This document shows positions 3,943 to 47,441 of a stretch of 51,146 nucleotides of DNA, in pieces (the first letter of the stretch is position 1; each line of letters starts with the position of its first letter). The translations under genes were made by a program, and so were the position numbers. The stretch comes from Candidatus Micrarchaeota archaeon (GTDB lineage Archaea; Micrarchaeota; Micrarchaeia; Anstonellales; Bilamarchaeaceae), in contig JAUWMC010000002.1 of the NCBI GenBank assembly GCA_030613375.1, forward strand, positions 1 to 51,146, read 5' to 3'. The notes under the pieces were generated by a model. It ran no database searches and was not told where the DNA came from. It worked only from the letters and a program-made list of their open reading frames with translations.

Positions 3943-4476
3943 ATGCGCATCGTTTTGGCAATAACCGGAGCCTCTGGGTTACAGTATGGAGTGAGATTGC
4001 ACGAAGTGCTGAAAGAGCTCGGGCACGAAGTGTGGATTATTCATGGCTCCGGAACAAAAATGGTTGCTGATGCGGAAGGAGTAGAGGTACCTGAAGCGGA
4101 TTTTGGGGAAAATGAAATGGGTGCACCTCCGGCTTCGGGCTCGCACCCTGTAGATGGAATGATTGTTGCGCCTTGTTCTTTGAAAACTTTAGGAGAAATT
4201 GCAAACGGAATTGGCTCGAATCTGGTTTCAAGAAGTGCGGAAGTAATGATTAAGGAAAGGAGGAAACTTGTTTTAGTAGTGCGGGAAACGCCTCTTTCAT
4301 ATATCGCGATTAAGAATATGGAAACAGTTACGCTTGCAGGAGGAGTGATTCTTCCCGCGTGCCCGGGATTCTATTCAAAACCCCAAACTGTGCAGGAAAT
4401 AATTGATTTTGTTTGCGGAAAAACTTTAGATCAATTTGGAATTGAGCATAAGTTGTACAAAAGATGGAAAGAATAG
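3943..4476 (+). CDS. ubiX: flavin prenyltransferase UbiX (prenyl-FMN synthase)
   Basis: Starts MRIVLAITGASG and contains MIVAPCSLKTLGEIANGIGSNLVSR and LVLVVRETPLS, the classic UbiX/Pad1 pattern. Length is 177 aa. Confidence 0.9.
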   Translation: MRIVLAITGASGLQYGVRLHEVLKELGHEVWIIHGSGTKMVADAEGVEVPEADFGENEMGAPPASGSHPVDGMIVAPCSLKTLGEIANGIGSNLVSRSAEVMIKERRKLVLVVRETPLSYIAIKNMETVTLAGGVILPACPGFYSKPQTVQEIIDFVCGKTLDQFGIEHKLYKRWKE

Positions 4477-4478
4477 GC

Positions 4479-5570
4479 TCAGAATGAGGGCGGAGCCATT
4501 TCAAAGGATTGCTCAAAATCTGAGTGCGAAGCAGCTTCTATCTCATGGACATCTACTGCCTTCTTCACAACCTCTGTTGAACGCTTGAGAGTCTGGCTTG
4601 CAGCCATTCCCTTCTCCACATTTGCCGTTGTTGCTGCTGCCTGCTCCAGCGCCTTTGCCCCCTTTGCGGTAGCAGTAAGGCCCATTGCTGCAGATCCCGC
4701 GAATGTTGTTTCTGCACCAGCAACACCCATCTCAAAACTTACTTCCGCACCTGCAGTGGCAAGCCTGCCTGCACTGGAGGTTGCTGCATAAAATGAGTGA
4801 AGCCCCTTTGCTCCGAGCTCGATTGCTTTTGCTGCCGCAATGGAGCCTGCAACTGCAAGTGCCATCTCCACAGTCATTTTCTTCACTCTAGTCTGTATTG
4901 CAGTCATGGAATTGGTGTATGCATTAAGTATGTAAAGTGAAGAATTAAGTCCCCTGCTTGCTTTTTTGAGGCTTTTGAGTGCCCCGGTAAGCTCAGTAGC
5001 TTTTTGCTCTGCAACTGATTCCTTCCCCTCAAGCACTGCACCAGCCAAGTCATTTGCAACGAAATATGCTTTGGAGTATTCTTCCCGGAAAACCTGCATT
5101 GTGCCCTTTTTTTGTTCAGGGGTTTTTCCCTGCGGGTCACCAACCACGGATTTGTGCGCATCGTCCATCCCCTCAAAAAAATCCTGGCGCTCCTTGGTAA
5201 GTGTTACGATAACTTCTTTTGGAGTTGCAATATTATCGGAAAAGATTGAGCCTACGGAACCAACTATGCCGAATATCTGGGCAGCACCCGTGCCCGCATA
5301 AACTATTGCTTTGTCCCCCAAATCCGGCATCTTATCCATTGCGGAGGAGAATTGCTTTTCAATGCTGTTATAACCCTGTCTGAGGCTCTGGAGGGAGCCC
5401 AGCATATCCTCCATTGCAGGAAGATATTGCTGTGCAAAATCTCTTGCCTGCTCAACCTTAGGCGCGCTTACGAAATCCCCCCGGAATTCGTTGCGCACAA
5501 GCGCATGCATCGCCTGCACAGTCTGGTCAAGCTTTTTTTCCTGCTTGGAAATTGGTGCCTTATATGCCAT
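4479..5570 (-). CDS. hypothetical helical protein with Gly/Ala-rich hydrophobic segments
   Basis: 363-aa ORF. It has two hydrophobic G/A/S/T-rich stretches (AIVYAGTGAAQIFGIVGSVGSIFS and MALAVAGSIAAAKAIELGAKG...GVAGAETTFAGSAAMGLTATA) between charged helices. Its start is 7 nt downstream of the lipoprotein gene. Confidence 0.65.
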   Translation of the reverse strand: MAYKAPISKQEKKLDQTVQAMHALVRNEFRGDFVSAPKVEQARDFAQQYLPAMEDMLGSLQSLRQGYNSIEKQFSSAMDKMPDLGDKAIVYAGTGAAQIFGIVGSVGSIFSDNIATPKEVIVTLTKERQDFFEGMDDAHKSVVGDPQGKTPEQKKGTMQVFREEYSKAYFVANDLAGAVLEGKESVAEQKATELTGALKSLKKASRGLNSSLYILNAYTNSMTAIQTRVKKMTVEMALAVAGSIAAAKAIELGAKGLHSFYAATSSAGRLATAGAEVSFEMGVAGAETTFAGSAAMGLTATAKGAKALEQAAATTANVEKGMAASQTLKRSTEVVKKAVDVHEIEAASHSDFEQSFEMAPPSF

Positions 5571-5577
5571 AAGAACA

Positions 5578-6498
5578 CTACTCCATCCTTTTCTTCAGCT
5601 CATCCTTTGTTTCCTGGGGGATGCGGGTACTCTTCAGTACAGAGTTTGCTGCAGCCCTTGCCTGGTTCTTGGTTTCTATGCTTAGGGCAGGATCCTTAAT
5701 CAGTTCTGCAAACGCAAGCGGATCGACTATTTTTACCAGATTAAGGAGGGCAGATTTTGTAGGTGCGGAAATTCCTTCTGTTTTGAGTGCTTTGGTAATA
5801 TCTTCAATTGCTTTTGCCACATCAAGCTTTCCGCTTTTCACCATGGAGATGCAGACCATGTTTGCAAATGGGCCGGAGAGTGAAATGTCCCTTGTGGAAA
5901 GGCCCGGAAAATTGAAATTGTCCCTTGCCGCATCCATGTTTGCAACCATGCTGAGTGCTGCGCGAAAACCCGCATGCCCGGATTTTGCAACTCCGTATGC
6001 AAGAGACTGCATAAGGCTGAGGCGTTCGGGCTCCTTTTTCTTGAGGTCAGATATGCTCATTGAAAAATCAGTGGAGAATGTGCTGGCTGCATGGGTAAGC
6101 AGTTCATCAAGCGCAGGGTTTCCGGTCCCGTAGGTGAAATCTGATTCTGTTTCCGCATACTTGAACACGAATGCATTTACCACATTGTATTTGTCTTCTA
6201 CAGGAACATCGCTTTTCAGAAAATTGAATACAAGGGATGAAGAGCTTACGAGCTCCATGTCCCGGATTGCATTCAGAACTTCCTTTTGCTCAACTTTCGC
6301 CTTCCCAAGCGTAATTGATGGTGCAACTCCCTCTGCAATAGGGGCAGCGTTTTCTCCTTTCTTTACCTCTTTTACCTCAGCCATGTTTCCACATCCTACA
6401 AAAGCAAGCGAAAGTAAGGGAGGCACCAGCGTGAATTTAAGGGCTGTGGCCACCCGGGGGAACTTTTGCGCTTTCCCCGCTTTCAGTTGCTTTTTCAT
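5578..6498 (-). CDS. putative lipoprotein, function unknown
   Basis: 306-aa ORF. The N-terminal signal carries a lipobox (LLSLAFVGC-GN). Confidence 0.65.
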   Translation of the reverse strand: MKKQLKAGKAQKFPRVATALKFTLVPPLLSLAFVGCGNMAEVKEVKKGENAAPIAEGVAPSITLGKAKVEQKEVLNAIRDMELVSSSSLVFNFLKSDVPVEDKYNVVNAFVFKYAETESDFTYGTGNPALDELLTHAASTFSTDFSMSISDLKKKEPERLSLMQSLAYGVAKSGHAGFRAALSMVANMDAARDNFNFPGLSTRDISLSGPFANMVCISMVKSGKLDVAKAIEDITKALKTEGISAPTKSALLNLVKIVDPLAFAELIKDPALSIETKNQARAAANSVLKSTRIPQETKDELKKRME

Positions 6499-6553
6499 AG
6501 AATTAAATTATTGGGAAGAATAAAATTAAAAGGATAGGGCTGAAGTAGGGTCC

Positions 6554-7063
6554 ATGGCGTACCTGAAGAAGCTTGAGCAGTTTCTGAAAGAGAAACAGCA
6601 TGCTGAGCTTCAAAAATTCTGCAGGGAAAAGCTCCAATTTACCCCTGAGGATACGGATTTGCTTTTCTATTATGCAGTTTCCCTTGAGATGCTTGGGAGA
6701 TATGATGCTTCAAGGAATACTTTTGAAAAACTCTTTAGGATTACAAAGGATAAAATTTTCAGGATATGTGAAGCGATCCCGGAATTTATGAAGGGAGATA
6801 AAGAGAAAGCGGTTTCTATTCTCAAGTATGCTACCCGCAAGGATGATAATCCTGAACACCTTCTCTTTGCATTTCGGGTTGCGATAGATGGGGGGGAAGG
6901 AAGGATTGCATCCGAAGCACTCAAGAAAGCCTTTTCTTTGGACCCGAATAAAACAATTGTTCTGCTGCAGGAGTATTTTGAAGGGCTGCATGAAAAGAGG
7001 CCGGAAAGGGTACTGCTTTTTGTTTCTCTGCTTGAGCTCCTGAAGGAAGTTGAAAACACATAA
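6554..7063 (+). CDS. TPR-like repeat protein
   Basis: 169-aa helical ORF with TPR-like A/Y/L spacing (LLFYYAVSLEMLGRYDASRNTFEKL). Confidence 0.55.
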   Translation: MAYLKKLEQFLKEKQHAELQKFCREKLQFTPEDTDLLFYYAVSLEMLGRYDASRNTFEKLFRITKDKIFRICEAIPEFMKGDKEKAVSILKYATRKDDNPEHLLFAFRVAIDGGEGRIASEALKKAFSLDPNKTIVLLQEYFEGLHEKRPERVLLFVSLLELLKEVENT

Positions 7064-7067
7064 TCAT

Positions 7068-7080
7068 TATTTTAAAGCGT
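7068..7080 (+). promoter_or_regulatory. TATA-containing promoter block TATTTTAAAGCGT upstream of the UbiD-like decarboxylase gene
   Basis: The block starts 30 nt upstream of ATG 7098. An identical 13-mer occurs at 3911..3923. Confidence 0.5.
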
Positions 7081-7097
7081 TGTGCAGAGATAAATGC

Positions 7098-8384
7098 ATG
7101 AAGTCTTTTCGTGATTTTGTAGCTGAATTAAAGAAGAATGGCGAGCTAAAACAGATTGAGCCCTCCATGAAGAAATACCTTGAGATGGCAGGGGTGTTCA
7201 GTGCGTTCCAGCCCACGCCGGTTATGGGGCATGCGGAAGAATCTAGTATTCGGTGTGTTTCAAACATTTTTGCAACTAAGGAGAAGGTTGCGGAGTATTT
7301 AGGGTGTGAGGTTTCAAAGATTAGGGAAAAAATGGTAAATGCAATAAATAATCCTTCTGCCCCTGCAAAGGCAAATACTGGCCCGGTGCTTGAAAAAACA
7401 ATGTCTTCTTTGGATGAGATTCCAGTTCCTACCCATACTGACAAGGATGGAGGGCCGTATATCTGCTCAGGAATAGTTATTGCAAAAGACCCTGAGCTTG
7501 GGCAAAACTGCTCATTCCACAGGATGATGGTTATTGATGGGGAGAGGCTGGTTTTGAGGATTTTAGAGAGGCACCTGCATCAGTTTATTGAAAGGGCGGG
7601 GGGAAGATTAGATGTTGCAGTAATAATTGGGGCTCCAATTAATGTGCTTCTTGCTTCAGCTATTTCTTCTAAATTAGGGCAGAATGAATTGGAAATTGCA
7701 AATACTCTAATGCCTTTTGAAACTGTAGAATTAATGAATGGAATAGAAATTCCAAAGGACGTGGAATTTGCATTTGTTGGAACAATAGATTCCAGTGAAC
7801 TTGCAGATGAAGGCCCGTTTGTGGATTTAACTAATACTTATGATATTGTAAGGAAGCAGCCTGTGATGCAGGTAAAGAAGATATATCATAGGGAAAACCC
7901 GATATTCCATGCACTGCTTCCAGGGGGAATGGAGCATAAAATCCTTATGGGAATGCCGAGGGAGCCCACAATTTTCAATGAAGTAAATAAAGTTGCAGAA
8001 TGCACTGGAGTAAATATTACTCCTGGGGGGTGCTCATGGCTGCATGCAGTAGTTTCAATTAATAAGAAATCTGAAGAAGATGGAAAAAAGGCGATTGAAG
8101 CTGCATTTGCAGGGCACAAATCATTAAAAAAAGTAATTGTTGTGGATTCTGAAATTGATGTGAATAATCCAGATGAAGTGGAGTGGGCACTTGCTACAAG
8201 GTTCCAGGCTTCAAAGGATTTAGTTGTAAAGGAGAATGAGCATGGCTCTTCCCTGGACCCTTCTGCTGAACCAGGGGAGAAGGCAAGCATTACTGCAAAA
8301 ATGGGCCTTGATGCAACAAAACCTCTTGAAGGAGAGCACTTTGAAAGGGTGAAATTCCTTGAAGTAAACAAGGAGGATTACTGA
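7098..8384 (+). CDS. UbiD-family prenyl-FMN-dependent decarboxylase; candidate anhydromevalonate phosphate decarboxylase
   Basis: The product has the UbiD fold pattern at about 428 aa. The start is placed at MKSFRDFVAELKK (ATG 7098, 30 nt after the TATA block at 7068); the ORF track start of 7050 is less likely. UbiX, IPK and AcnX genes sit in the same neighbourhood. Confidence 0.82.
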   Translation: MKSFRDFVAELKKNGELKQIEPSMKKYLEMAGVFSAFQPTPVMGHAEESSIRCVSNIFATKEKVAEYLGCEVSKIREKMVNAINNPSAPAKANTGPVLEKTMSSLDEIPVPTHTDKDGGPYICSGIVIAKDPELGQNCSFHRMMVIDGERLVLRILERHLHQFIERAGGRLDVAVIIGAPINVLLASAISSKLGQNELEIANTLMPFETVELMNGIEIPKDVEFAFVGTIDSSELADEGPFVDLTNTYDIVRKQPVMQVKKIYHRENPIFHALLPGGMEHKILMGMPREPTIFNEVNKVAECTGVNITPGGCSWLHAVVSINKKSEEDGKKAIEAAFAGHKSLKKVIVVDSEIDVNNPDEVEWALATRFQASKDLVVKENEHGSSLDPSAEPGEKASITAKMGLDATKPLEGEHFERVKFLEVNKEDY

Positions 8385-8729
8385 ATGATTGAATCTTATG
8401 AATTTGGAAAGATTGTGATTGGTGGGAAAGAATATACTAACGATGTAATTATAGTTAAGGGAAAAGTTTACCCAAACTGGTTTAGGGCGGAGGGGCATTT
8501 TTTATCTAAAGAGGATTTAGGGCCGATTTTGGAAGGGGGAATACATACTTTGCTTATTGGAACAGGATATAACTGTGTTATGCGTGTGGGAGAGGATGTG
8601 CGGAAGTATTGCAGGGAAAAGAAAATTGAATTAATTGAGCTTGGAAGTAGGGAGATTGTGGATAAGTATAATGAGTTTGAGCATAAAGACCTGAGCGGGG
8701 TTGCTTTGGGAATACATTTGACCTGTTAG
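8385..8729 (+). CDS. Mth938-like (DUF498) domain protein
   Basis: 114 aa. The pattern F-G-x-I-x-I-x-G..Y..DVII....V..W......H.L...DL..IL......LLIGTG resembles the MTH938 family. The ATG follows directly after the TGA stop of the UbiD-like gene (cTGAATG). Confidence 0.65.
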   Translation: MIESYEFGKIVIGGKEYTNDVIIVKGKVYPNWFRAEGHFLSKEDLGPILEGGIHTLLIGTGYNCVMRVGEDVRKYCREKKIELIELGSREIVDKYNEFEHKDLSGVALGIHLTC

Positions 8730-11704
8730 TTCATTATTGATTCGAGCATTGGTTCTCCACTGGAGAAGGTTTTTTCAGTTGTTGCTTTTTCTCTTAGGGA
8801 CTGGATGATTCTTCCTTTTAGATACTCTACGTGCTCAGGAAAGAGGTTCATTTTCTCAGCAATTTCCTGAGTGGAGTATTCCGTCCCATTTAATCCAATC
8901 CAGAATTCTGCAATTTTGCGCATCCTGTGTGGAAAAGATTTAATCTGTTGCTTATGCTGGATGGCAAGCATTTTCCCGTCAGTTTCCAGGTCAAATTTTA
9001 AGGTGGGTGCTGCCTTGAGGAACTGGAATGCATCTTCAATAAGGTGTTTCGTAGCAGTAATGCTTTCTATTTCCAGAATTTCCCGTACTTCAGAAAGAGT
9101 GTGGGGCCTCCAATTAGCCATGCCGAGCTTAGCCCTAACTATCAATTCTGCCCTTGGCTCTACGCCTGAAAAGATTCCTGGGGCATCTCCAACAACAAGC
9201 CATTGCCCTGAGCCCAGCCTTGAGTCTCTTCTGGTTTTTTCCGCAATTAATTTAATAATCGCATTTTGCTTTCTCTGGAAAATTGCAGTTTTACATATAT
9301 GGATTCCCTGCTCTGAAAGCGGCCCTATCATTTCACTGCGGGTGTGCATTTTTTTTCCTGCCAATCCGAAAGCCATAGAAACAATTTCCCATTCTGCCTT
9401 GTTTAGTGCATCCATTAACTGAGGGTTTCCTTCAACCATCGCCCCAATTGGGTCTGGAAACCTTTTTTTAGTTTCATTTTCAATAACGGCAGCAACTACT
9501 TTCCACATCGCTTGATCCAAAATCTGCCTTGTTCTGGAAAAGCTTGATATGCCCATAGTGCACTGTAGTTTAGTAAGAGAATGTTTGGTGTTTCCACCCA
9601 AACCAAAATATAATTCAAGTGCACGCCTTTTTTCTGATGGGAGTGTCCTGAGTTCCTCGGAATGCTGAAGCAGGTATCCTGGAGCCCCCAACCTGCTTTT
9701 TTTAATGAGTTGAGAAACTGATTCCATCTCAAGTAAGTGGAGCCTGGCTCGTTTGAGTTTCATCAGTTTTGCTGTAGTGCGTTGGCCATGTGCATTCTCT
9801 CCATCCAGCCCAAAGCGCAGAACCAATACTCTTTGTTGCAATGGAGTTAGAGATGCAAAACTATCTTCATTCTCCGCTACAAACTCAGAAAAATAAGAGA
9901 AATTGCCAGATTGCACATTATTTCCGCTATGAACTTTTGTAAAGAGAGAAATTATTCCTCTTTGCACTAACTGTTTTGCAGTAAAGTTTCCACTCAAACC
10001 CATTTCTTCTGAAACATCGTCATATGAATGTACTCTGGTTCCAATTCCAAACCTGAGCTCCAATGCCTCTTTTTCAATAGGTTTCAATTCAGGCAGAAGG
10101 TGGAAGTTATCATAAACGAACTTCATTAAGGCAGGATCCATCTTAATCCAATTGCCAATGAGAGGAAAGTAATGTGTGTCCATAATCTTTTCCAGAGACT
10201 TGCCAACTTTGACTTTAGCTGATGAATCCAATTTTGGGCATCCTTTGCCTGCCTGTTCAAAATGAAATGTTTTCTCAAGAAATGCTGCATCCAGATATTT
10301 TAAACGGTGCGGAAAATGTGCTCTGTGTTTCTTAAAAAAATCCCGGAGCGTACCATTATTTCCACCCGTGAAAACTTTATTTGCCAACTCAAATAGTGCG
10401 GTGCCTTCCAACTGCCGAATCCTCTCTACGCTCACTGGTGTTTTGCCTCTGTTGATAGCTTGCGCGATTTCTCCCAGGGTATGCATTCTTCCATCTAAAA
10501 ACCCAAAACGCAGTTGCAAAACATTTCTGTGTGTCTCTTTAAGAGAAAGAAGCTTAGGATAATGTGCTATTAGGAAATTCCTCACGCCTCGGTTTAGAAA
10601 CACCCGAACTCCTTTTCCCAGTTGAGTATCCGAAGCAGCATCAAAAGCTTTTTTGAAAACACTTTCAAGCAGGTACTCATGCATCCCAGTAATAGTTGCA
10701 ATCTCATCCATACGATGTGGCCTACTGATTCCCACTCCAAAATGGAGTCTAAGGGCAAGTTCCTTATCCCAATCCATTAAATGGAAGAAACGTTCATTTT
10801 CCTCAACAAACAATCTGTTTTTCCGATCTAATTTATGTGTTTCTCCCAGGTTTTTATCTTCTCTGTTAAGGAGCAGGGAAAGACTGGCAATTGCAGCCTG
10901 ATAATGCACCCTCATTTTGGAGGAGTCCATTCCATTAATCCTTTTTCTTGCACCTGAAACATCATCTCCAACTCCAAAACTGACTGCAATGGCATCCCTT
11001 TCTCTACCAGGCAAAAGAGAAATCGCCTCTGCAAGTTTTTTCTTCATATCCCCAGCTAAGGCCTGTTCTTCTGGAAGCGGAGATACAGAGCACCACTCAG
11101 CAATAAAATCAAGTTCGGTGGTGCCTGTGCGCTTTTCTACGGGCTCATTTGGTTTTGTTGAGTAAATAAGTTCCTGCCTTTCTGCACCTCGCACTGAACT
11201 AGTCCAGAGTAACATGGCATCCTGGACAGATTTGGCCTTTTCAATGGATATCTCTTTGGTTCTTGCAAACGTTTCCAGAGTCATTTCTGGATTTTTCTGC
11301 ATTTCTGCACGATATGCCGAAATATCAGATACACTTGCCAGTGAAAATGATACGCTCCTGAGTGTGCGCTCCATCTCAGGTTTCCATCTTCTAAGGTTCA
11401 ACATTGCATATGCTTCAAAAACAGGGTTTGTTTTGGGTTTCCAGGTGTGTGCAGCAGAAAGAAGCAGTAAAAATCCTGCATTGGCAAAATCAGGGGCAAT
11501 TACATAATTTCTGCTAAGAACTCTCCATTTTGGAGGCGTCTCAGAAAGAGAATTCATATGAACAATAGACCCTGGAACTCTTCCAAGCTTGTTTGCCCGA
11601 AATGCCCTGTGCAGGAGATAGGTATATTTCTCTGCAATTTTAGCGGGGTCTGCCTTGAGGGGTTTGCATAAGATGCGTGCCTGCTTTGAAGCTGCTTCAG
11701 CCAT
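8726..11704 (-). CDS. sigma-70-like protein with divergent region 2, a region 3-like HTH and nine tandem region 4-like HTH units
   Basis: 992-aa ORF with GGAGG 8 nt upstream of the ATG. DFANAGFLLLLSAAHTWKPKTNPVFEAYAMLNLRR aligns without gaps to the sigma region 2.1-2.3 core. LLPGRERDAIAVSFGVG and VLQLRFGFLDGRMHTLGEIAQAI..VSVERIRQLEGTAL are r4-type units. Confidence 0.8.
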   Translation of the reverse strand: MAEAASKQARILCKPLKADPAKIAEKYTYLLHRAFRANKLGRVPGSIVHMNSLSETPPKWRVLSRNYVIAPDFANAGFLLLLSAAHTWKPKTNPVFEAYAMLNLRRWKPEMERTLRSVSFSLASVSDISAYRAEMQKNPEMTLETFARTKEISIEKAKSVQDAMLLWTSSVRGAERQELIYSTKPNEPVEKRTGTTELDFIAEWCSVSPLPEEQALAGDMKKKLAEAISLLPGRERDAIAVSFGVGDDVSGARKRINGMDSSKMRVHYQAAIASLSLLLNREDKNLGETHKLDRKNRLFVEENERFFHLMDWDKELALRLHFGVGISRPHRMDEIATITGMHEYLLESVFKKAFDAASDTQLGKGVRVFLNRGVRNFLIAHYPKLLSLKETHRNVLQLRFGFLDGRMHTLGEIAQAINRGKTPVSVERIRQLEGTALFELANKVFTGGNNGTLRDFFKKHRAHFPHRLKYLDAAFLEKTFHFEQAGKGCPKLDSSAKVKVGKSLEKIMDTHYFPLIGNWIKMDPALMKFVYDNFHLLPELKPIEKEALELRFGIGTRVHSYDDVSEEMGLSGNFTAKQLVQRGIISLFTKVHSGNNVQSGNFSYFSEFVAENEDSFASLTPLQQRVLVLRFGLDGENAHGQRTTAKLMKLKRARLHLLEMESVSQLIKKSRLGAPGYLLQHSEELRTLPSEKRRALELYFGLGGNTKHSLTKLQCTMGISSFSRTRQILDQAMWKVVAAVIENETKKRFPDPIGAMVEGNPQLMDALNKAEWEIVSMAFGLAGKKMHTRSEMIGPLSEQGIHICKTAIFQRKQNAIIKLIAEKTRRDSRLGSGQWLVVGDAPGIFSGVEPRAELIVRAKLGMANWRPHTLSEVREILEIESITATKHLIEDAFQFLKAAPTLKFDLETDGKMLAIQHKQQIKSFPHRMRKIAEFWIGLNGTEYSTQEIAEKMNLFPEHVEYLKGRIIQSLREKATTEKTFSSGEPMLESIMN
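8786..11020 (-). repeat. protein-level tandem array of nine sigma region-4-like units (aa 229-973 of the 992-aa ORF)
   Basis: Unit cores are AIAVSFGVG, LALRLHFGVG, VLQLRFGFLDG, ALELRFGIG, VLVLRFGLDG, ALELYFGLGG, IVSMAFGLAG, LIVRAKLGMA and IAEFWIGLNG. Each is followed by a helix-turn-helix-like stretch. The period is about 75-150 aa. Confidence 0.7.
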
Positions 11705-11839
11705 AAACTAGCCTCCAGTTAAGCATAGGTCCAATTAAACACCTCAAAATACCGGTTTGCATAAAGTAATATAATGTGCCACAACACATATAAACACTAC
11801 AAAATACTATAAAATAACGTACATCCAACCTGTTGAGGC

Positions 11840-12946
11840 TTAAGCCACCTTGGACTCAGCAGTAGTTATCTTGAAACTAGCATCACGCTCCCAGCGATTC
11901 AACACTGAAAGAGGAATTCCCAATAGCGTAAAGAGGCCTCTCCTTTTGACTTCAGAATATAAAAGCAACGAGGTTCTGCGAATTTCTTCCGGTGTGCCCA
12001 GATCATCCCTCCGCATAAGAGTACTGCTCAATTCAACTATCTTACGGTCTGAGAGAAGAGATGCATTCTGCCTTGAAATGATTTTTAGCTTAGTAAATAT
12101 CTTTGGGTTTTTTACGCGCCTTCGCGCAATCGCATCAAATAGATGTTTATTCTGAAGTTTTAGTTCTGCCAATGAGATTAATCTGTTCTCGGCACAATAT
12201 GCATTCACTGCGAAAATAAACTCCCCATACCTAAGAGATCCCCACTCTGTATTCTTACGCACTTCAATATCTTCCCATATGTTAGGGAACCTCTTTCTTC
12301 TTCTCAGAACCGCATTGTACATCTTGGGATTGTTCTCGGCTAAATCCGAAGCATTGGCAAGTCCGTTAACTTCGCAATGGGCATTTACCAGGACGATAAA
12401 CTCCCTATATTTCATCTTGCTCCATGGAACAATTGTAAGGGGCAATCCGACATCATCGATAATCTCCCTTTCGTAAAGTTCAACAGTTATTACTCTCCCT
12501 CCTGGGGCAGCCTCAAGGCCCTTACGCGTAGTTATCTTATTGGCGGCTATGAATTCTTTCGCATATTCTATTACGGCTTTATCCCCCATGGATGCCCAAT
12601 CAATTCCTATGGAGTCCAAGCTGACTGACTCCAGCAAGCCTCTTCTTATTAATCTGCCATGAAGGCCACTGTGCTGGAGCTTTAATGCAGTTCTGCTCCT
12701 AATTCCCTGCGCAGCAATAACCTGCTTTGCAGCAAGAATTAGCTCGGGATCAGTTAATTTGTTCCACTCAAGCCTCCGCTTTTTGTTCTTGCATATTGCA
12801 ACAGGTACAAAAAAAGGCAGCTTTGAATCTGAAAACAGGGGAAGTTTTCCATTAAATCCTTGTTTCCCTTTGAGTAGTATAAGTCCTGGTTTTTGCATCG
12901 CGCGCACTTTGTGGGCGTATGATGTTCTGTGAATAACCGTGTCCAT
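11840..12946 (-). CDS. repeat protein built of five ~50-aa helical (HTH-like) modules; reminiscent of homing-endonuclease-associated repeats
   Basis: 368-aa ORF with five modules: WNKLTDPELILAAKQVIAAQGIRSRTALKLQHSGLHGRLIRRGLL; WASMGDKAVIEYAKEFIAANKITTRKGL; WSKMKYREFIVLVNAHCEVNGLANASDLAENNPKMYNAVLRRRKRF; WGSLRYGEFIFAVNAYCAENRLISLAELKLQNKHLFDAIARRRVKN; and LSDRKIVELSSTLMRRDDLGTPEEIRRTSLLLYSEVKRRGLF. A TATA-like box lies about 30 nt upstream. Confidence 0.7.
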   Translation of the reverse strand: MDTVIHRTSYAHKVRAMQKPGLILLKGKQGFNGKLPLFSDSKLPFFVPVAICKNKKRRLEWNKLTDPELILAAKQVIAAQGIRSRTALKLQHSGLHGRLIRRGLLESVSLDSIGIDWASMGDKAVIEYAKEFIAANKITTRKGLEAAPGGRVITVELYEREIIDDVGLPLTIVPWSKMKYREFIVLVNAHCEVNGLANASDLAENNPKMYNAVLRRRKRFPNIWEDIEVRKNTEWGSLRYGEFIFAVNAYCAENRLISLAELKLQNKHLFDAIARRRVKNPKIFTKLKIISRQNASLLSDRKIVELSSTLMRRDDLGTPEEIRRTSLLLYSEVKRRGLFTLLGIPLSVLNRWERDASFKITTAESKVA

Positions 12947-13088
12947 TAGTAGTTATTTGGTGAGATAAAGTTTAAAAAATGCCACACTTCGTTTTATTTG
13001 CCGGGCACCTCCCAATTTGATGATTGTGGAACTTCCCACAAATACCTATTTAAATGTAAAAAGCCCTCATGGATGCAGGTGAATTTGC

Positions 13089-14258
13089 TTGGAACTGAGT
13101 AAACGCGAGCAAGCAATGCTTCACGGAAAAGAAGGTGAAGCAAAGCAAAAAGCAATGGAAATACTTGTTGCACTCGGAAGAATTTATGGCGCTTCCCGCA
13201 TGATTCGGATTAGCTCTGCACAGATTGCAGGAGTTTCATACAAGACTATTGGAGATGCGGGGCTTGAATACCTAAGACATATGGCTGCGCTTGGGGGGAG
13301 GGTGGAAATCCCCTCATTTTTGAATCCTGCTGGAATGGATACTGAACAATGGGAAGCAATGGGAGTTCCGGAAGATTTTGCAAAGAAGCAGATTGAAGTG
13401 CTGGATGCATATGCAACAATGGGAATACGGACTACCTGTACTTGTACCCCATACCTGATTGGGATTCGGCCTAAGGAAGGGGAACATATTGCATGGAGCG
13501 AAAGCTCTGCGGTTTCTTTTGCGAATTCGGTTCTTGGGGCGCGCACAAACAGAGAAGGCGGGCCTTCTGCATTGTGCGCTGCACTTTGCGGGGTTACTCC
13601 TATGTATGGGCTGCACCTTAAGGAAAATAGGGTTGCTAATTTGCTTGTGCATGTAGATGCGAATTTGGAGAATAAAACAGATTACAGCATTGTGGGACTT
13701 CTTGTAGGGAAGAAGGTAAAAAAGGGGATTCCTGCATTCAAAGGAATTAAACCAAATGAGACTCAAATGAAGTATATGGGAGCTGCAATGGCGGCTTCAG
13801 GCTCTGTTGCGCTTTATTTTGTAGAAGGAGTTACTTCAGAATGGAATGTTTCGCCTGATGCGGAAAAGATTACTATTACTCAGAAAGAGATGGACGAGCT
13901 TAAAGCAAAGATAAATGATGCGGATTCTGCAGATTTGATTACTACTGGATGCCCGCACGCATCCATTTCAGAATTAGAGGAGATTGCAGAAATGCTTGAA
14001 AAAAAACCTGTGAAGAAACCGTTTTGGATTTGCCTGAGCAGGAACATAAAGGATGAAGCGGTAAAAAGCGGTCTTGCTGCACGGATTGAGAAGAATGGGG
14101 GAACACTAGTTGCAGATACCTGCATGGTTGTTGCGCCCCTGGAACGCATGGGCTTCAAATCCCCTGCAATTGATTCCGGGAAAGCAACCGTGTATCTTCC
14201 TACAATGTGCCGGCAAAAAGTGCTCTTTGGAAGACTGGAGGAGATTTTATGGAAATAA
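13089..14258 (+). CDS. aconitase X catalytic (large) subunit, DUF521; candidate phosphomevalonate dehydratase large subunit
   Basis: TTG start. The N-terminus ELSKREQAMLHGKEGEAKQKAMEILV...ISSAQIAGVSY matches the AcnX/DUF521 pattern. Length is 389 aa. Confidence 0.82.
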   Translation: MELSKREQAMLHGKEGEAKQKAMEILVALGRIYGASRMIRISSAQIAGVSYKTIGDAGLEYLRHMAALGGRVEIPSFLNPAGMDTEQWEAMGVPEDFAKKQIEVLDAYATMGIRTTCTCTPYLIGIRPKEGEHIAWSESSAVSFANSVLGARTNREGGPSALCAALCGVTPMYGLHLKENRVANLLVHVDANLENKTDYSIVGLLVGKKVKKGIPAFKGIKPNETQMKYMGAAMAASGSVALYFVEGVTSEWNVSPDAEKITITQKEMDELKAKINDADSADLITTGCPHASISELEEIAEMLEKKPVKKPFWICLSRNIKDEAVKSGLAARIEKNGGTLVADTCMVVAPLERMGFKSPAIDSGKATVYLPTMCRQKVLFGRLEEILWK

Positions 14259-14325
14259 CAAAGCAGCAAAAAACCCATGTAATACTTCATATATCGGGGG
14301 GAATCAGGAGGAACCTCAAACTGAA

Positions 14326-14340
14326 GGGGGGTGTCCCCCC
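14326..14340 (+). other. G6-TGT-C6 perfect hairpin in the spacer between the two AcnX subunit genes
   Basis: The sequence GGGGGGTGTCCCCCC is read directly at 14326..14340. Confidence 0.6.
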
Positions 14341-14361
14341 TGCGGTTCGGGAGGAGATATT

Positions 14362-14757
14362 ATGGAAATAAGTGCACGCATAATTTCCAAAGGAAAAGCT
14401 GTGGGAAAGGCGATGGTTAGCGCGGAACCGATTTCCTTCCTGGGAAGCGTGGACCCAAAAACAGGAATTGTTTTGGAAAAGGGGCATCCTCTTGAAGGGA
14501 AATCAGTTGCAGACAAGATTCTTGTATTTCCGCACGGGAAGGGATCCACCGTAGGGAGCTACGTGATGCTTGGAATGAAGAAGAATGGGGTTGCTCCTGC
14601 AGCTATTGTAAATTTGGAGGCGGAAACAATTATTGCCGTGGGCGCAATTATTTCGGAAATTCCAATGGTGGATAAGCCCGAGGGGGATGTGCTGGAACTT
14701 TTGAAGAATGGGATGGAGGTAACAGTTGATGCTGAGAAGGGGAAAATATCATGGTAA
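14362..14757 (+). CDS. aconitase X swivel (small) subunit, DUF126; candidate phosphomevalonate dehydratase small subunit
   Basis: 131 aa starting from MEISARIISKGKAVGKAMVS..ISFLGSVDPKTG...GKSVADKILVFPHGKGSTVGSY. GGAGG lies 7 nt upstream of ATG 14362. The ORF track start of 14110 overlaps the large subunit and is rejected. Confidence 0.8.
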   Translation: MEISARIISKGKAVGKAMVSAEPISFLGSVDPKTGIVLEKGHPLEGKSVADKILVFPHGKGSTVGSYVMLGMKKNGVAPAAIVNLEAETIIAVGAIISEIPMVDKPEGDVLELLKNGMEVTVDAEKGKISW

Positions 14758-19555: not shown

Positions 19556-19619
19556 AAAGAGGATTTAGCTATAAATTAATTAAAAGGGGAAGGGGGGTAG
19601 GTTTCCAGTGAAAAAAATG

Positions 19620-19692
19620 TGGGACCGCCGAGATTCGAACTCAGATAACAAGTCCCCGAAACTTGCAGCTTACCAGGTTGGCTCACGGTCCC
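19620..19692 (-). tRNA. tRNA-Pro (anticodon CGG)
   Basis: A 73-nt cloverleaf was folded by hand: acceptor GGGACCG/CGGTCCC, anticodon stem CAAGT/ACTTG, loop TTCGGGG, T-arm CTGAG-TTCGAAT-CTCGG, discriminator A. No CCA is encoded. A T7 run follows immediately. Confidence 0.9.
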
Positions 19693-21136: not shown

Positions 21137-24100
21137 TTGGATTCTCAGTTTAAAGGAAAAGGGAAACCCGTGCTTAATGTCAGGTCACATGAAGAATTAG
21201 GGATAACTGCAATTGCAGCGGTGCCTATACCGACACCAGTGGAAACAGGAAATTTGGCTGAAATTGCAGGAAAGGAAGCAGAAAGAGAAGTAAATAAGTT
21301 AACAAATCTGGGTGGACAAACTGAAGAAATTGCGGAAGCTGCTTTGAATATTGCATCACAAAACACTGAAAATGCGGTTGCGCTGGATTCCCGGGCAATG
21401 GCTGAACTTACTAAAGAAAGCTTAACCGACAAGGTTAACTCTCTGGAAGTGGCTCTTGAAAAAATGAAATCAGGGGAGAAGTATTCTAAGCTTCCCCAGG
21501 AAATAAAAGAAAGAGTTGAGAATGTTGCATGGCTTGCCTCGCAGGCAGGAAACAGGCTGGATTCAATGGAAGGTCCGGGGCAGGAAAATGTGCTCCGAAA
21601 AGCAAGCGAAGATGTTTCCTTTGCAACTTTTGCAATGAGCACAGTGCCTCTTGAAAAACAGGACCCTGCATCTGGAATGGCAAAATTCCACAAAAAGCTA
21701 AAGGAACTGCGGGAAATGGGGATTGAAGAGAGGGTGGGGAGGGAAAGGGAGGGATATATAGAACTGAGGGCTGCTGCAATTGTGGCATCCCTAGAGATAA
21801 GGGTTCGCTCCAATGCTAGGGGCATTGCACTTGCAAAAGAATACCGGAAACAAAACAAAAAATCATATTCAAAGGAGGAAAATAAAAAAATTAGGGGATA
21901 TCTTGCGCTTGCAGCGCAGCTTAATGGGAAAGCGCAGAAAAGCTTGCAGGGAGGGAAGCTTCTTGAGGCAGATGCACTTATTTCCAAATCCAATGCCCTA
22001 TCATCTGCAACCATGATGTACCTGGGCGCAGTGGGGTCAAGAAACTCCATGCGGCCGCCCATTAGGAGAAAAAATGAATATGAAAGGCTCAGAACAGCGG
22101 CAGCCTCCGAAATAAGCAAGATTGAGGGTGCGATGAATGCGATTGCTGCACTTGACACATCAATGGATGTAAAGGAACTCTCTGCAAAAACACTGGAGAA
22201 GTTTGGAGAAGTGCAGGAAGCGTGCGGTGCGGTGCAGAAAAAGGCTGCGGAAGCTGAACTGCTGCGGTTTGATGCATCACGTGAAGGGTATGTGGACAAG
22301 AGGCTGGAAAGAGTAGGTAAACGCACGCGTGGGCTGATAGATGCAGGGCAATACGAGGATGCTACTGAGCTGCTTGGGGTTGCTTTCCTTTACAAGGGAA
22401 CATATGAGAAGAGCTCATACAAGGGAATTGTGGGGGAGGATGAGAAGAAGAAAACACTTGGCCAAAAGCAAAAAGAGCTTGCAAAAAAGTTTGGATATTC
22501 TCCAAAAAGAGATAATTTGAGGCAGGCACGAAGGAAACTGGGGAGGGCTCTTGATGCGCTCTGTCCCCCTGAGAAAGAAGTTAAAGGAAAGCGGATGGGC
22601 GAAGCTTACTACGAGCGGGAGCTTGCAGCTGCAAAAGGCCTTATCAAAAGCGTGAAGAAAGGGCTGACGCATGCGCAGGATGCAAGGCAGGACCAGAAGG
22701 ACCAGCTTCTTGTGCTTGGAAAAGGGCAAAAAAAGAAGCCCGGCTCAGTTGCAACCAACACTGATATCGACCTTATGGCTGCTTACGGGCTTATGGGAAG
22801 GGCAAATGATGCAGAGCAGGTGCTCGACACAACTTTCCAGGATCACCTTGATGCAGAAAGGGAACTTTACATTGCTTCCCTAAACGTTGGGGAAACGATG
22901 GGGCTTCTAGCCACGCAGGACAAGCTGGTAACCCAAAAACAGAAGGAACTTGCAGCTGCTGGAAAAGACCTTGCAAAGCAGTCTGCAGGGATACTTGGGA
23001 ATGTTGCCCTCAAAGAATCGTTCGAAGAAATAGAGGAGCGGGAAAAGGAGGAAGGAATAATTATAACGCCTCATGGGGAAACAGGAGCAGACCGTACCGC
23101 ACTTGCAGTAAACGGAAGGCTTACGGGCACGCTTGATAATGTAATGAAGCAGGAAGCCAGGATGTCCGGCCTGCATGATGCAACCGTAAAAATATTGGGA
23201 GGAAAAACGGAGGAAACTGGGGTAGTTGGGTATAACGTTGCAGAAATAGTTGATTTGCAAAAAGAAGAGCTGAAGCGCTCTGATGAGGTCCTGAAGGAAG
23301 CAGGAGGGATGCAGGCGATAGGGAGAAGTGCATCCACTTACCTCATGGCCTACCGTGCAGGGGAAAGCAGGTTCTGGGGGAACACAAGAACAGTTCAGAT
23401 GCGGGACTATATCCCACGTGCAATGGATAAACTTTATGATGCTGCGAAGCATGTTGGGGATGGAAAATGGAAGGATGCTTCTAAGAGATATGGGGAAGCC
23501 CAGGGCCAGTTTATGGAAGGGTTTGCAACTGCAAGCGAGCGCAAATACAATGACCCCCTAATAGTGGAATACAAGGAAAAAACTCAGAATGCATTTGATG
23601 TGCTTATTGGGGTGAACGAGGGTGAAGCAAAAGACCTGAAAGCAGCAATACTTGCACTCAATGCAACTAACCTTACTGTGCAAACCCAATACAGAGGAAG
23701 CCAGGTGTTTGAAGGAGGGCTTGAAAATATTTTTGTTTCGTTTGAAGATGGAGGCTGGCTAACTCTTCTTGGGCCTGCGGGAATGGTTGCAGCTCAAGTT
23801 TACAGGGCATCTTCAAAGAGGAAGGAAGTGGTGCCCAAAACAAGGGAAGAAAAGCTGGAGCGCATTGGGTATGTTCCTTATGAAAAGAGAGTTGCAAGGA
23901 TGGAGGCTAAAACTGAGGAAGTGCTCAGCGGAAAAACCTCATTGTTTGAAAAAAGAGGGGCATTAAACAGCATAAGAAATGATGCGGATGACTCCCTTGA
24001 AACCTACCAAATTGCGCAGAGCGCGGAGGATGGACTGTTTACTGCCGCTTCGCTTGCTCTCCAGCCGATTTTCATTACTGAAATGACCCGTGATACGGTG

Positions 24101-27100
24101 AGGCATGGCGCGGATGTGAATACTGCAATACTGGCTGCTGCACTTGCCACAGGGAAAATCGGGCAGTTCAGGAAAGCGGCTTCAGAGTTTGCAGAAGTTG
24201 TAGGGAAGGGTGCAGAGCAGCTTGAAAAGCTTAGCAAGCTGCAGAAAGTAGCACAGCACCTGAAAGACCCTGTGGAGCTTGTGCATTTTGCGGCTACAGG
24301 GTACCTTGTGGTGCATGGAACTGCAGGAGCAGTAACAGAATTTGAGTATTTTGCTGCGACAGGGGACACGCGGCACCTTACTGCAGGAGTGCAGTCCATT
24401 GCATTCCAGATTCCTATTCTTACAGGGTTTACTGCACCCATGCTGAGGGGAGGGAAAACTGCTCCCCGTGCAAGGGAAAAATCCCTCCTTGGAAGGGTGC
24501 GCGATCAGCGCTTGGCAGAGCAAAAATTCAGGGAAAGGCTTGAAAAATCCAGGACACCTGAGCAAAGGGAACTGGAACAAAAACTAAAGGAAAGGCCGGA
24601 AGCACCCACTGGGGAAAAAGTAAAGGAAACGATTGCGGAGAGAAAGAGGCTCATAAAAGCAGAAGAAAAGGAATGGGAGGAGCTTAAAACTGAAAGGAAA
24701 GGGGTTACCCCAAAAGAAATTGCCGAGCAATTCAGAAAGATTGAATCCAGTGCAAAAGAAATTGCTGGTAATCGCGAACTTACTGCTGAAGACCAAACTC
24801 ATTTTGCAGAAGGGAGGAAAGCTGAAGCCGCAGAATTGCGGGAGCGCGCAGAAACCCTTAAGCTGGAAGCTGTACGGATAAAATCAGAGCTTGGGGAGAA
24901 AGCAACAATTGATATAATGAAGAGAGTAGACAGGCTGAACAAAACTGCAGGAGCGCTTGAAAAAAGCGCTAAGATAATTGATGCCCAATCCCGGAAAAAG
25001 GTTGCTGTGAAAGTTAAAGGCGTTGTGCCCAAGATTATTGTAACGGAAACTGTTTCGGCAAAGCTGCGCCAGAATCTTGAAATACTTGAGGTAAAAAAAG
25101 AAGTGCGAGCTGCAGCTGAAAAGAAAATCGGCGCATCTGCCCTGGAAGAACGCACAAATGCAATTATGCGCACCTTCAAGGGAATGGAAGAAGTCGGGCG
25201 CGAAGTAGTTGAAAAGAACCCTGAGCTCTTTACGCAGCCCCAGGCTAAATTTGAGGCAAATGTGAAAAGGCTCAGGCAGACAAGAAAAGATGTACAGAAG
25301 ATTAAATTGGTGATGGAAGAGCGTGGCCTTAAGGTCCCTGAAGGAATTGAACGCGATGCAAGGCCTTACCTTGACGTGAATTTCAGGGAAAACGTCCACC
25401 TTGAAGTCTGGCGCATGGAGGCGGAAAAGCTTGGTGTAACTGTTGGGCCTAAAGCCCAGCCTGCTGCAGAAAAGGCGGCTCCGGCTGAAGCCCGGGAAGT
25501 AGAATATTCAACACGCAGGGAAAGGCAGGATGCAAGCTTCATGAAAAAGTATGGTGTTGAATGGGCAGAAAAAACAATTGCTGAAAACCGCCCTGAGGCG
25601 AATGAAACTGTTGAGAACCAACGGCTGAGATACCTTGCGTTTAACCGGATTGCGAGAGAACCTGCAAAAGTAAGGATGGTGCTGAAAGAAAGAACAATTG
25701 AAAACACCCCGAAAGAACTACGGGGCATCGTTGAGATCGAATGGAAAATTTATGTGGAGGGAATGATTCCTGGTCTTAATGAATATAGCCCTGTACGAGA
25801 GATGTCAAGGTTCAAGGCAATCCAATCTGAAAAACTGGCCCCTAAAATAAAAAGTGATGTTGATGGATTCGTGCGCAATGCAGAAGGTGCAAATGCCCAT
25901 GGGGTGGCCCATGATAAGGGAGGGCATGAACGATTCACAAATGTTGTTCTAAAGGGGGAAATCCCTCAGACTGCATGGGTCGGTCCGATGAAAAAGGGCC
26001 CCGGTGTGGACCGCTCTACCTCCTCTGCATTCCACGGCCCATTCTGGGTTGTGCTTGAAGGGAAAGCAGGGGCAAAGAAAGGCCCCATAAGTGCAAAGGA
26101 ACACGTTGCGTACGTGTGCCCATCTGAGAAATACATGGTGGAAACATCCAGGGCAATAAAAGATGCATATTCACAGGGACTAATGACCCGTACGGAGGCA
26201 GTAAAAGCAATTTCAAAGCTCATGACTGCTGCAGAAGCAAAAGAAGCTCCTGCAACCGCCTTCCGCTCTCGGGCAGGCAGGAAGGCAGGGGCAAGGGAAT
26301 TCTGGGCTGAAAGAAGTGCTTTGGCTGAAGGGGAAATTGTTTCGTTTGAACGATTCTCAAGAATGGAAGTAAAGGAAGTGGCTGCGAAGCCGAAGAAGAA
26401 TATCGTTGAGAAGATTAAGGAACTACGTGCGGAGGAAAAACGAACCGGAAGACCCAGCCTAGATCGGGCAATGCTGGAAAGGCAGATTGAGCAAAACCCG
26501 CACCTAAAGAAAGCAGTTGAAGAATATAGACGCATGGTGAGGCTCTCGGTTCGTGCAGAGAAAGGCACGCAATTTGGAATGGTTGGGGATGTAGAAGGGT
26601 TCAAAGCAGAGAATGTAAGGGAAGCTGGGGCGGCAAAGGCAAAAGCAGGAGAGAACCTTGTGGATGCGGAAGCAACTGCAAAACCTGCAGAACCATCTGT
26701 AGGGATGACACGGGCAAGAAAGGCCCTGAAGGCCATGAAAGGAGCAAGGCAGAGGGCAAAAGAGAGGATACTTGCCCTTGCGCGGTTGCCTGCAAAAATA
26801 AAACGGCTCAGAAAACAGCGCAGGAAGGAAAAGCGTGCACAGGTGCTTACACCTAAAGGAGAGAGGGTTAAGGTTCCACAAGAGCAGGCTGAGAATGCAA
26901 GTAAAAGAATGCAGGACACAATATTCAAATCCGCCATTACTGATACAGGAATGAGAAATGCGATTGGGCTCGAACGAGGAAGATCCCTTGCGAAAAATGC
27001 ATGGGCTGAAGTATACAGGGGAGAAGCTAAGCCCACGTTCAAAACCACATTAGAAAAAGATACATACGTGGCAATGAAAAAACAGGTGCAGGCAAGATTC

Positions 27101-34689: not shown

Positions 34690-34900
34690 TGTGGCTACTC
34701 CCCGCCCTAAAGGACGGGGCTTCTCCTTCACAAATAGATCTTCCTGATTCATAGAGATACTTGCCCATTATACTTTATAATGGTAGAGGCATCTTCTCAG
34801 CAGGCTTTACTTCCCCGCGCCCACGGGTAGCTTGTTTAGAGCCTGAATGTCTATCACCTAGAGATAGGCCCAGAGCTCGTTTGAGTATATTTTTAGCTGC
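34690..34900 (-). ncRNA. candidate omega-RNA (reRNA) region covering the tnpB 3' end and right end
   Basis: The call is positional, by analogy with characterised TnpB systems. The 8-bp hairpin at 34700-34719 contains one pair that is G-U only in the tnpB sense and a C-A mismatch on the other strand. Confidence 0.3.
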
Positions 34901-47369: not shown

Positions 47370-47441
47370 TGGACTTGGGGGGAGTCGCACCCCCGGCCTC
47401 TCCCATGCCAAGGGAGCGCTCTACTACTGAGCTACAAGCCC
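47370..47441 (-). tRNA. tRNA-Ala (anticodon GGC) with atypical D- and T-loops
   Basis: A 72-nt cloverleaf was folded by hand: acceptor GGGCTTG/CAAGTCC including the G3:U70 alanine identity pair, D-arm GCTC-AGTAGTA-GAGC, anticodon loop TTGGCAT, T-arm GGGGG-TGCGACT-CCCCC, discriminator A. A T7 run lies downstream and TATA-like TTTATC about 30 nt upstream. Confidence 0.75.

Follow-up and report, generated by a model that had tools for sequence, protein, structure and literature searches.

A sigma-70-family protein with nine sigma-4 modules in a Micrarchaeota mevalonate operon

The gene and its nine sigma-4 modules

Transcription initiation is defined by sigma factors in bacteria, and archaea use TBP, TFB and TFE for it. 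A gene for a sigma-70-family protein nevertheless lies in the archaeal DNA analyzed here, a stretch of 51,146 nucleotides (the window) from contig JAUWMC010000002.1 of a tiny symbiotic archaeon, Candidatus Micrarchaeota (DPANN; assembly GCA_030613375.1). The open reading frame (ORF) occupies 8726..11704 on the minus strand, starts with ATG and encodes a protein of 992 amino acids (aa) with a net charge of +29, in which sigma-2, a sigma-3-like domain and sigma-4 are followed by eight further sigma-4 modules. The 135-bp spacer upstream of the gene (11705..11839, minus strand) is AT-rich and contains TATA-like boxes, and a GGAGG precedes the ATG by 8 nt; as read from the sequence, the spacer could hold a putative promoter and ribosome-binding site of the gene's own. 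Across the whole protein, the Pfam model Sigma70_r4 (PF04545) scores 80.5 bits, where 24.1 is the cutoff. TIGR02937, the generic model of the superfamily, passes as well (52.9 vs 42.9 bits), and the stretch that it matches lies inside the sigma-4 array. No named sigma subfamily of NCBIfam (RpoD, RpoS, FliA/WhiG, ECF, SigK/E) reaches its cutoff, the best of them scoring 96.2 bits where 384.5 is required. Two other identities can be set aside. The Pfam scan of the protein contains no TFIIB cyclin or B-ribbon family at E<=1, which rejects an archaeal TFB/TFIIB identity, and a LuxR/GerE-type helix-turn-helix (HTH) identity is rejected because GerE matches only the last module, where it scores 12.4 bits (E 0.12) and 23.5 would be needed.

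The nine sigma-4 modules, numbered u1 to u9 from the N-terminus, align over about 65 residues that comprise a lead-in helix, an xLxLRFGL core, an H-[ST]-L-x-E-[IV] motif and a long last helix. Each of the eight further modules is complete, with region 4.1 and a region 4.2 HTH. Three independent tests agree on how the modules are delimited. The first is a leave-one-out hidden Markov model (HMM) test that scores each unit against 500 shuffles of itself: all nine units rise above their shuffles, u1 and u5 marginally and the remainder with 14-33 bits vs 5-9. A profile of single-sigma-4 paralogues from other genomes, in which no multi-sigma-4 sequence was included, matches the protein with E 6e-35 and resolves exactly nine domains at the same positions. 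Finally, a full-length AlphaFold2 (AF2) model repeats a module of four to five helices nine times, with a mean predicted local distance difference test score (pLDDT) of 62.7 and values mostly between 70 and 88 in u3-u7 and u9. When the Pfam r4 model is applied unit by unit, u3 alone passes (aa 386-437, 35.1 bits), u4, u5, u6 and u9 stay below threshold (E 6e-4 to 0.023), and u1, u2, u7 and u8 have no Pfam match.

All nine modules are encoded on the minus strand. Module u1 (aa 196-287, 10844..11119) occupies the canonical sigma-4 position; here a family profile aligns its residues 207-276 with SigA 307-378 at 38 bits, and the leave-one-out score is the marginal 7.6 vs 6.6 bits. It is followed by u2 (aa 302-364, 10613..10801; leave-one-out 14.1 vs 5.6 bits), which is domain 2 of the paralogue-profile match and whose EELALRLxFGIGI..PH..EI pattern is kept in orthologues. 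The most canonical module is u3 (aa 381-447, 10364..10564; VLQLRFG...SVERIRQLE), with a leave-one-out score of 27.1. Its recognition-helix motif ERIRQ is kept, and the recognition helices of the other modules differ. Module u4 (aa 532-598, 9911..10111) reaches 19.8 bits with Pfam r4 (E 5.7e-4) and 28.1 in the leave-one-out test; u5 (aa 611-677, 9674..9874) reaches 17.4 bits (E 3e-3) and a marginal 11.7 vs 10.1, at a pLDDT of about 75-86; and u6 (aa 680-747, 9464..9667) reaches 15.8 bits (E 0.01) and 33.5. The two modules near the C-terminus that lack a Pfam match are u7 (aa 760-826, 9227..9427; leave-one-out 19.0 vs 8.1 bits, pLDDT about 75-87) and u8 (aa 840-906, 8987..9187; 17.9 vs 4.9 bits), the latter keeping GM.NW..HT.TE in four orthologues. 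The array ends with u9 (aa 916-980, 8765..8959), which has 14.6 bits with Pfam r4 (E 0.023) and 15.3 in the leave-one-out test, and the best stretch of the PHROG 351 sigma-factor match falls around it (aa 911-982).

Between u3 and u4 lies a helical segment (aa 448-531, 10112..10363, minus strand) with four AF2 helices, 61% identical in the relative P0002. Its start resembles a module lead-in followed by a degenerate xLxLRFG helix (LRDFFKKHRAHFPHRL...AAFLEKTFHF), a likeness on which the segment may be a degenerate or decayed tenth module; the repeat HMM finds no further unit in aa 448-531 or in aa 1-220.

The N-terminal sigma-2 and sigma-3 part

The part of the protein that precedes the array is much harder to recognize. 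A sigma-2-like domain (aa 20-117, 11354..11647, minus strand; 21.8 bits for a family profile vs PDB) consists of a weak region 2.1-like helix, a 25-aa insertion and regions 2.2-2.4 (DFANAGFLLLLSAAHTW...FEAYAMLNLRR). It is followed by a sigma-3-like domain (aa 122-169, 11198..11341, minus strand) that includes the HTH-like LETFARTKEISIEKAKSV and is colinear to sigma-3.0/3.1 of SigA (profile 72-165 to SigA 220-319); AF2 predicts its helices at aa 122-137, 143-149 and 154-169 with a pLDDT of 73-88. A region-3.2-like linker (aa 170-195, 11120..11197, minus strand) is predicted to be disordered (pLDDT <35, no secondary structure) and leads into u1. As a single sequence, this part gives little. Neither Sigma70_r2 (PF04542) nor the r3 model of Pfam matches the 992-aa protein even at E<=10, the N-terminal 204 aa scanned alone have no Pfam match, and a phmmer search of PDB with aa 1-288 returns noise only (Brr2 helicase, E 0.6). 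The full-length sigma models of NCBIfam are weak but colinear (aa 71-239 to FliA/WhiG 27-184, E 1.4e-4; aa 71-160 alone, E 0.019).

Conversely, profiles of the family find sigma factors readily. A five-sequence profile of aa 1-288 matches solved sigma factors in PDB with E down to 7e-16, and some of the single alignments span region 2.2, sigma-3 and region 4.2 (for instance, profile 68-276 to SigA1 187-387). In a control, the sigma-4 part was removed together with P0012, the most canonical member of the profile; the profile then has six matches to PDB at E<=10, every one of them a sigma factor (best E 0.0027). For aa 1-288, the AF2 model has a mean pLDDT of 54.8 with locally confident helices, and the top 50 Foldseek matches to it are without exception sigma factors, with E down to 1.8e-5. 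A syntenic orthologue of 1010 aa in the genome L005 passes Pfam Sigma70_r2 (25.6 vs 24.0 bits). Moreover, a profile of twelve Micrarchaeota paralogues of about 300 aa aligns continuously with SigA regions 2.1-4.2 (E 5e-21) and matches aa 70-249 of the 992-aa protein at 63 bits. Among 5.8 billion sequences, this short-paralogue profile reaches bacterial RpoD-type proteins carrying Pfam r1_1, r1_2, r2, r3 and r4 (E 1e-12) and finds no additional archaeal members. Because the family profiles, the Foldseek matches, the L005 orthologue and the short-paralogue profile all point to sigma factors, homology to the sigma-70 family is established; in the N-terminus it is visible with family profiles, the single sequence being too divergent.

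How much of the sigma-2 surface survives can be read from the family-profile alignment to solved sigma factors, for which the numbering of E. coli sigma-70 is used. In that sigma factor, Q406, E407 and N409 are the region 2.2 contacts to the beta-prime clamp coiled-coil, and Y425, Y430, W433, W434, Q437, T440 and R441 in regions 2.3/2.4 serve in melting of the -10 element and recognition at -12. The 992-aa protein keeps D403, G408, L412, A415, F427, Y430 and R436. The three clamp contacts are replaced (N75, A76 and F78 of the protein), and the changes in regions 2.3/2.4 are Y425P, W433L, W434N, Q437R, T440P and R441E.

An earlier note, made from the letters of the window alone, had described the gene as a full-length sigma-70-like protein with nine tandem region-4 units. 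The 992-aa ORF lies exactly at the coordinates given there, and all of the motifs it quoted lie where it placed them. The order sigma-2, sigma-3, sigma-4 and then eight more r4-like units is supported by Pfam r4, the leave-one-out HMM and the family and paralogue profiles, and nine HTH modules can be counted in the AF2 model. A profile check gives significant matches for r4 and, at the level of the family, for r2, and the gap-free alignment of region 2 to the group-1 core is reproduced by HMMER with family profiles. The term full-length sigma holds for homology. It does not extend to the residues that a working sigma-2 domain uses, since W433/W434, Q437, T440, R441 and Q406/E407/N409 are lost and Pfam r2 fails on the protein alone.

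A variable islet in a housekeeping operon

The neighbors of the gene are archaeal. They comprise the modified mevalonate pathway (an IPK-type kinase, UbiX, a UbiD-type decarboxylase and the two subunits of AcnX) and genes for Hjc, GluRS and SMC; the earlier note had named IPK, AcnX-type mevalonate genes and Hjc among them. On the left, the islet of sigma-like genes is bordered by the UbiD-type decarboxylase (7050-8384) and a DUF498 gene (8385-8729), which together cover 7050..8729 on the plus strand, and on the right by the large and small AcnX subunits (13089..14757, plus strand); both borders are assigned by Pfam and synteny. Using UbiD as a synteny handle in a species-representative genome collection, 12 UbiD-linked loci were compared, 10 of which are named Candidatus Micrarchaeota or Micrarchaeia. 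In the more distant Micrarchaeota L007-L011, whose UbiD is 55-62% identical, UbiX, UbiD, AcnX-L and AcnX-S are contiguous, with a gap of 2-23 bp between UbiD and AcnX. In the subclade of the window (UbiD >=71% identical), the same junction holds DUF498 and 3.6-7.8 kb of sigma-like genes. The arrangement UbiD / sigma-like / AcnX is common to six independently assembled metagenome-assembled genomes (MAGs; the window and L001-L005), and GC composition has no break across the 992-aa gene, so that the earlier note's concern about a misassembled join finds no backing. Because the operon is contiguous in L007-L011 and interrupted in the subclade, a chimera or contamination is excluded, and the sigma genes are a lineage-specific insertion between UbiD and AcnX in one Micrarchaeota subclade.

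The number of sigma-like genes in the slot between UbiD and AcnX varies with the genome, from one to at least seven. In the window, the slot contains the 992-aa gene and, upstream of it, a gene for a 368-aa W-repeat protein (11840..12946, minus strand) that is homologous to the N-terminal domain fused to a sigma-2-3-4 module in L003 and L005. About five repeats of some 57 aa can be seen by eye in the W-repeat protein, each starting near a Trp (W..L.D.E....A..F......R..L......Y..L.RRGL), and nothing in Pfam, PDB sequences, PADLOC or PHROGs matches the protein. By blastp, it matches a 594-aa W-repeat/sigma fusion in L005 (15771-17555; E 1.8e-24), where the fusion shares the slot with the 1010-aa multi-sigma-4 gene, and a 695-aa fusion in L003 (11345-13432; E 1e-19), where it is accompanied by a 289-aa sigma-like gene. 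L001 and L002 have one extra short sigma-like gene beside the multi-sigma-4 gene, and the islet of L004 (11782-19066, minus strand) consists of seven tandem sigma-like paralogues of 304-361 aa. The twelve short paralogues, which come from several genomes and include the seven of L004, have, when aligned, an invariant Cys in the sigma-2 region, where a Trp is nearly invariant as well, and an AGELR motif is found at the C-terminus of most of them. No integrase or other mobile-element gene is present in the islet, as judged from the ORF list and Pfam.

Close relatives of the full protein are few. An exhaustive phmmer search of 1.84 billion representative proteins yields four clear relatives only, namely P0002 and P0005, two fragments from one MAG that are 55% and 44% identical, P0003 (29%), which NCBI already names 'sigma factor-like helix-turn-helix DNA-binding protein', and P0004 (31%). 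P0002 and P0004 adjoin UbiD, as in the window. A word-index search with the full 992-aa protein returns its self-match only, no relative of the multi-sigma-4 protein was found on IMG/VR viral contigs or JGI metagenome contigs, and the family members looked up form singleton clusters in nearly all cases. The sigma-like proteins are 31-55% identical between genomes vs 78-85% for UbiD; the islet is a fast-evolving cluster of sigma-like genes.

The modules themselves are old. Pairwise identity among the modules of the 992-aa protein is 10-25% (mean 17.6%), and orthologous modules are 51-67% identical to those of P0002 and 19-36% to those of P0003. Since orthologous modules are far more alike than the modules within the protein, the array is older than the divergence of these genomes. 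No tandem repeat is found in the gene at the DNA level, and recent tandem duplication is rejected by this and by the low identity between modules. P0004 is without most of u4 and all of u5-u7, and therefore module number varies. Intact ORFs of about 1000 aa persist across lineages just 23-55% identical. By these comparisons, the nine modules are ancient and under selection, each keeping its own identity.

Several other features of the window may be recorded. The TTG start of the UbiD ORF (7050) is probably 16 codons too early, since orthologues begin with MKSFRDF, at about nt 7098. The mevalonate operon of the subclade (3943-14757 in the window) is interrupted a second time, between UbiX and UbiD, by two unknown genes and a TPR gene (4479-7063). 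The two ORFs, at 4479-5570 and 5578-6498 on the minus strand (363 and 306 aa), are unmatched in Pfam, PADLOC and PHROGs and are conserved only in the sigma-islet subclade (25-74% identity in L003, L004 and L013). Farther away, an ORF of 2723 aa (21137-29308, plus strand) lies in a stretch with a strong purine skew and a higher GC content of 0.45-0.50; its sole Pfam match is a calcineurin-like phosphoesterase domain at aa 2107-2215. An IS605-type OrfB/TnpB gene with OrfB_IS605, Cas12f1-like TNB and HTH_OrfB_IS605 domains lies at 34775-35923 (minus strand). The tRNA-Pro(CGG) at 19619-19692 (minus strand) is an ARAGORN call that is missing from the Rfam matches at gathering threshold, unlike tRNA-Ala at 47370-47441.

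Possible functions and comparison with known systems

We read this native Micrarchaeota member of the sigma-70 superfamily, with modest confidence, as one that has been exapted as a multivalent HTH DNA binder and is not a working initiation factor. Archaea have an archaeal-type RNA polymerase. Because the host, by its lineage, would have this enzyme and most of the residues for -10 melting and beta-prime docking are lost, an exapted sigma is most likely, rather than a canonical one, and on the lost sigma-2 residues the canonical sigma function of the 992-aa protein looks doubtful. DNA binding is the most economical role for the array: the HTH of sigma-4 is one that reads DNA, the protein carries a basic charge, and each module is conserved in its own right and has a recognition helix different from the others. 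In such a scheme, every module would recognize a short site of its own through its HTH, and the basic protein would probably act as a multivalent, sequence-specific DNA binder, whether as a transcription regulator or as a chromatin organizer.

Four other explanations have to be weighed against DNA binding. An assembly or binning artefact, in which a bacterial fragment was placed on an archaeal contig, or a decaying pseudogene is effectively refuted. The MAG of one relative is labelled just 'bacterium' at NCBI, but it carries archaeal-type UbiD, UbiX and IPK genes 83-94% identical to those of the window; the layout of the islet recurs in independently assembled MAGs without a break in composition, and the ORF is intact at 992 aa, its orthologues conserved module by module. 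The earlier note also considered that the target might be the RNA polymerase of a bacterial partner or host. An effector acting on the bacterial RNA polymerase of a partner or competitor would draw on bacterial ancestry and sigma architecture only, and we regard it as very improbable and without support: no signal peptide or secretion motif is seen by eye in the N-terminus, the residues for binding the bacterial core and for melting are lost, the known Micrarchaeota hosts are archaea (Thermoplasmatales), and the gene is located in a housekeeping operon. A protein-binding scaffold or conflict factor is unlikely, yet it would account for the pace of change in the islet. Here the sigma-4 modules would serve as adaptors, for instance by sequestering host or viral transcription proteins, and the islet would be a locus of a symbiont-host or virus-host arms race. 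The much faster evolution of the sigma-like genes than of UbiD fits this proposal, as do a copy number and architecture that differ in every genome, the singleton clusters of nearly all family members looked up, and the status of sigma-4 as a known protein-interaction surface. Also, rpoS-like genes have been reported in DPANN viruses (PMC12647753). On the other side, PADLOC assigns no defence family to the 992-aa protein or its companions (only a generic similarity to the sigma domain of MzaA appears, in two relatives), no relatives are found among IMG/VR viral contigs, the islet lacks an integrase or mobile-element gene, and a strongly basic protein fits nucleic-acid binding.

In the remaining alternative, which we consider rather improbable, the protein would be a true factor for initiation or promoter specificity that works with the RNA polymerase of archaea. 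Sigma-2 would sit on the Rpo1 clamp coiled-coil, an element whose structure is conserved from one multisubunit polymerase to another, and sigma-4 would read upstream elements, so that the protein would complement or replace TBP/TFB at a subset of genes. The order sigma-2, sigma-3, linker, sigma-4 is kept throughout the family, including the paralogues of about 300 aa with their continuous alignment to regions 2.1-4.2, and because the full domain order is conserved, selection on the whole ensemble, and not just on the HTH, is suggested. The disordered 3.2-like linker is retained as well, and the expansion of paralogues (seven in L004) resembles the repertoires of alternative sigma factors in bacteria. 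Against such a factor stand the loss of Q406, E407 and N409 and of W433, W434, Q437, T440 and R441, the lack of a known precedent, and archaeal TBP/TFB/TFE reported in DPANN (PMC8204110). A bolder version, and one that we would call a long shot, is a hybrid transcription-initiation system in this Micrarchaeota subclade: sigma-like proteins of bacterial origin, diversified since their acquisition into as many as seven paralogues per genome and a nine-sigma-4 form, would use the retained sigma-2 fold to dock on the RNA polymerase of the archaeon and confer promoter selectivity alongside or instead of TBP/TFB. In that system, the protein with nine modules would recognize a long composite element upstream.

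The exapted DNA binder that we favor faces difficulties of its own. Its function is deduced from domain identity, and sigma-4 also binds proteins (the beta flap tip, anti-sigma factors and activators), so that some or all of the modules could be protein-binding; u2, u4 and u8 are net acidic. Both structure models have low overall confidence (pLDDT 55 and 63; predicted TM-score 0.33). With the full-length model, Foldseek yields no significant match (best E 8e-3), and that search was used solely to show that no other fold class competes. Retention of the sigma-2 core fold across the family suggests that a partner is still present, possibly RNA polymerase. Lastly, that the host is without a bacterial-type RNA polymerase is taken from its lineage, the DNA covered being the 51-kb window.

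Genes classified as sigma-70 have been described in DPANN archaea, mainly Woesearchaeota, in a study that excluded mis-binning and saw no anti-sigma factors; how the genes act was left open there (Castelle et al., 2021; PMC8204110). The family of that report, fam00359, is alike in consisting of sigma-70-type genes native to DPANN genomes, and it is set apart by its description, which contains no multi-sigma-4 architecture, tandem paralogue islet or W-repeat fusion; our literature searches likewise found no account of multi-sigma-4 arrays, tandem paralogue islets or W-repeat fusions. Thus, the novelty claimed for the 992-aa protein stands in part: a sigma-like gene in DPANN is already known, and no description of the nine-module form was found. 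The locus makes the puzzle of sigma genes in DPANN concrete and accessible to experiment, as it contains true sigma-2-sigma-3-sigma-4 homologues and not stray HTH domains. These genes are native, occupy a defined and comparably variable slot of a housekeeping operon, and have diversified rapidly into unusual architectures. Any family member that engaged the polymerase of archaea would be the first case of a sigma-type factor working with an archaeal/eukaryotic-type enzyme.

In its domain order, the protein corresponds to bacterial group-3-type sigma factors without region 1.1 (FliA/WhiG, SigB), which likewise run from sigma-2 (2.1-2.4) through sigma-3, represented in the 992-aa protein by the sigma-3-like domain, and a flexible 3.2-like linker to sigma-4 (4.1 and the 4.2 HTH). 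Unlike these, it is archaeal, has nine sigma-4 modules instead of one and carries the 25-aa insertion between regions 2.1 and 2.2; it has also lost W433/W434, Q437, T440, R441 and Q406/E407/N409, and the Pfam r2 and r3 models fail on it. MzaA of the MZA anti-phage system is another long sigma-70-family protein with additional domains. Its similarity to the 992-aa protein is weak and at the level of r4 (NCBIfam, 35.6 bits), far below the cutoff of 800, and there is neither a PADLOC match nor an Mza partner gene among the neighbors scanned; membership of this defence system is rejected on the score and the PADLOC result.

The nearest parallels in architecture are other proteins with tandem sigma-4 arrays, all of which (P0006, P0007, P0010, P0011 and P0016) have the xLxLR[FY]GL core in common with the 992-aa protein. 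The earlier note knew of no bacterial sigma factor with an array of this kind, but P0007 (L017, 915-3692) is one that arose independently: this bacterial sigma matches Pfam r2, r3 and r4, carries an array of at least seven further modules and is encoded in a tsaE-tsaB-rimI context. P0006, P0010, P0011 and P0016 have sigma-4 arrays without a visible N-terminal sigma-2-like sequence; P0011 (L015, 6001-8817), with 11 or more modules, is located on a 990-kb contig next to GHMP kinases. All five proteins appear uncharacterised. If it does bind DNA, the array of the 992-aa protein would represent a modular multi-HTH reader of natural origin whose module identities have been kept over long evolutionary time, with a bearing on the evolution of composite DNA recognition and on protein design. 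The arrays in the databases have generic r4 similarity only to that of the 992-aa protein (E 1e-5 to 2e-8, 22-30% identity), and their modules are much more alike among themselves, with a mean identity of 33-59% vs 17.6%, which marks the other array proteins as probably younger, independent expansions.

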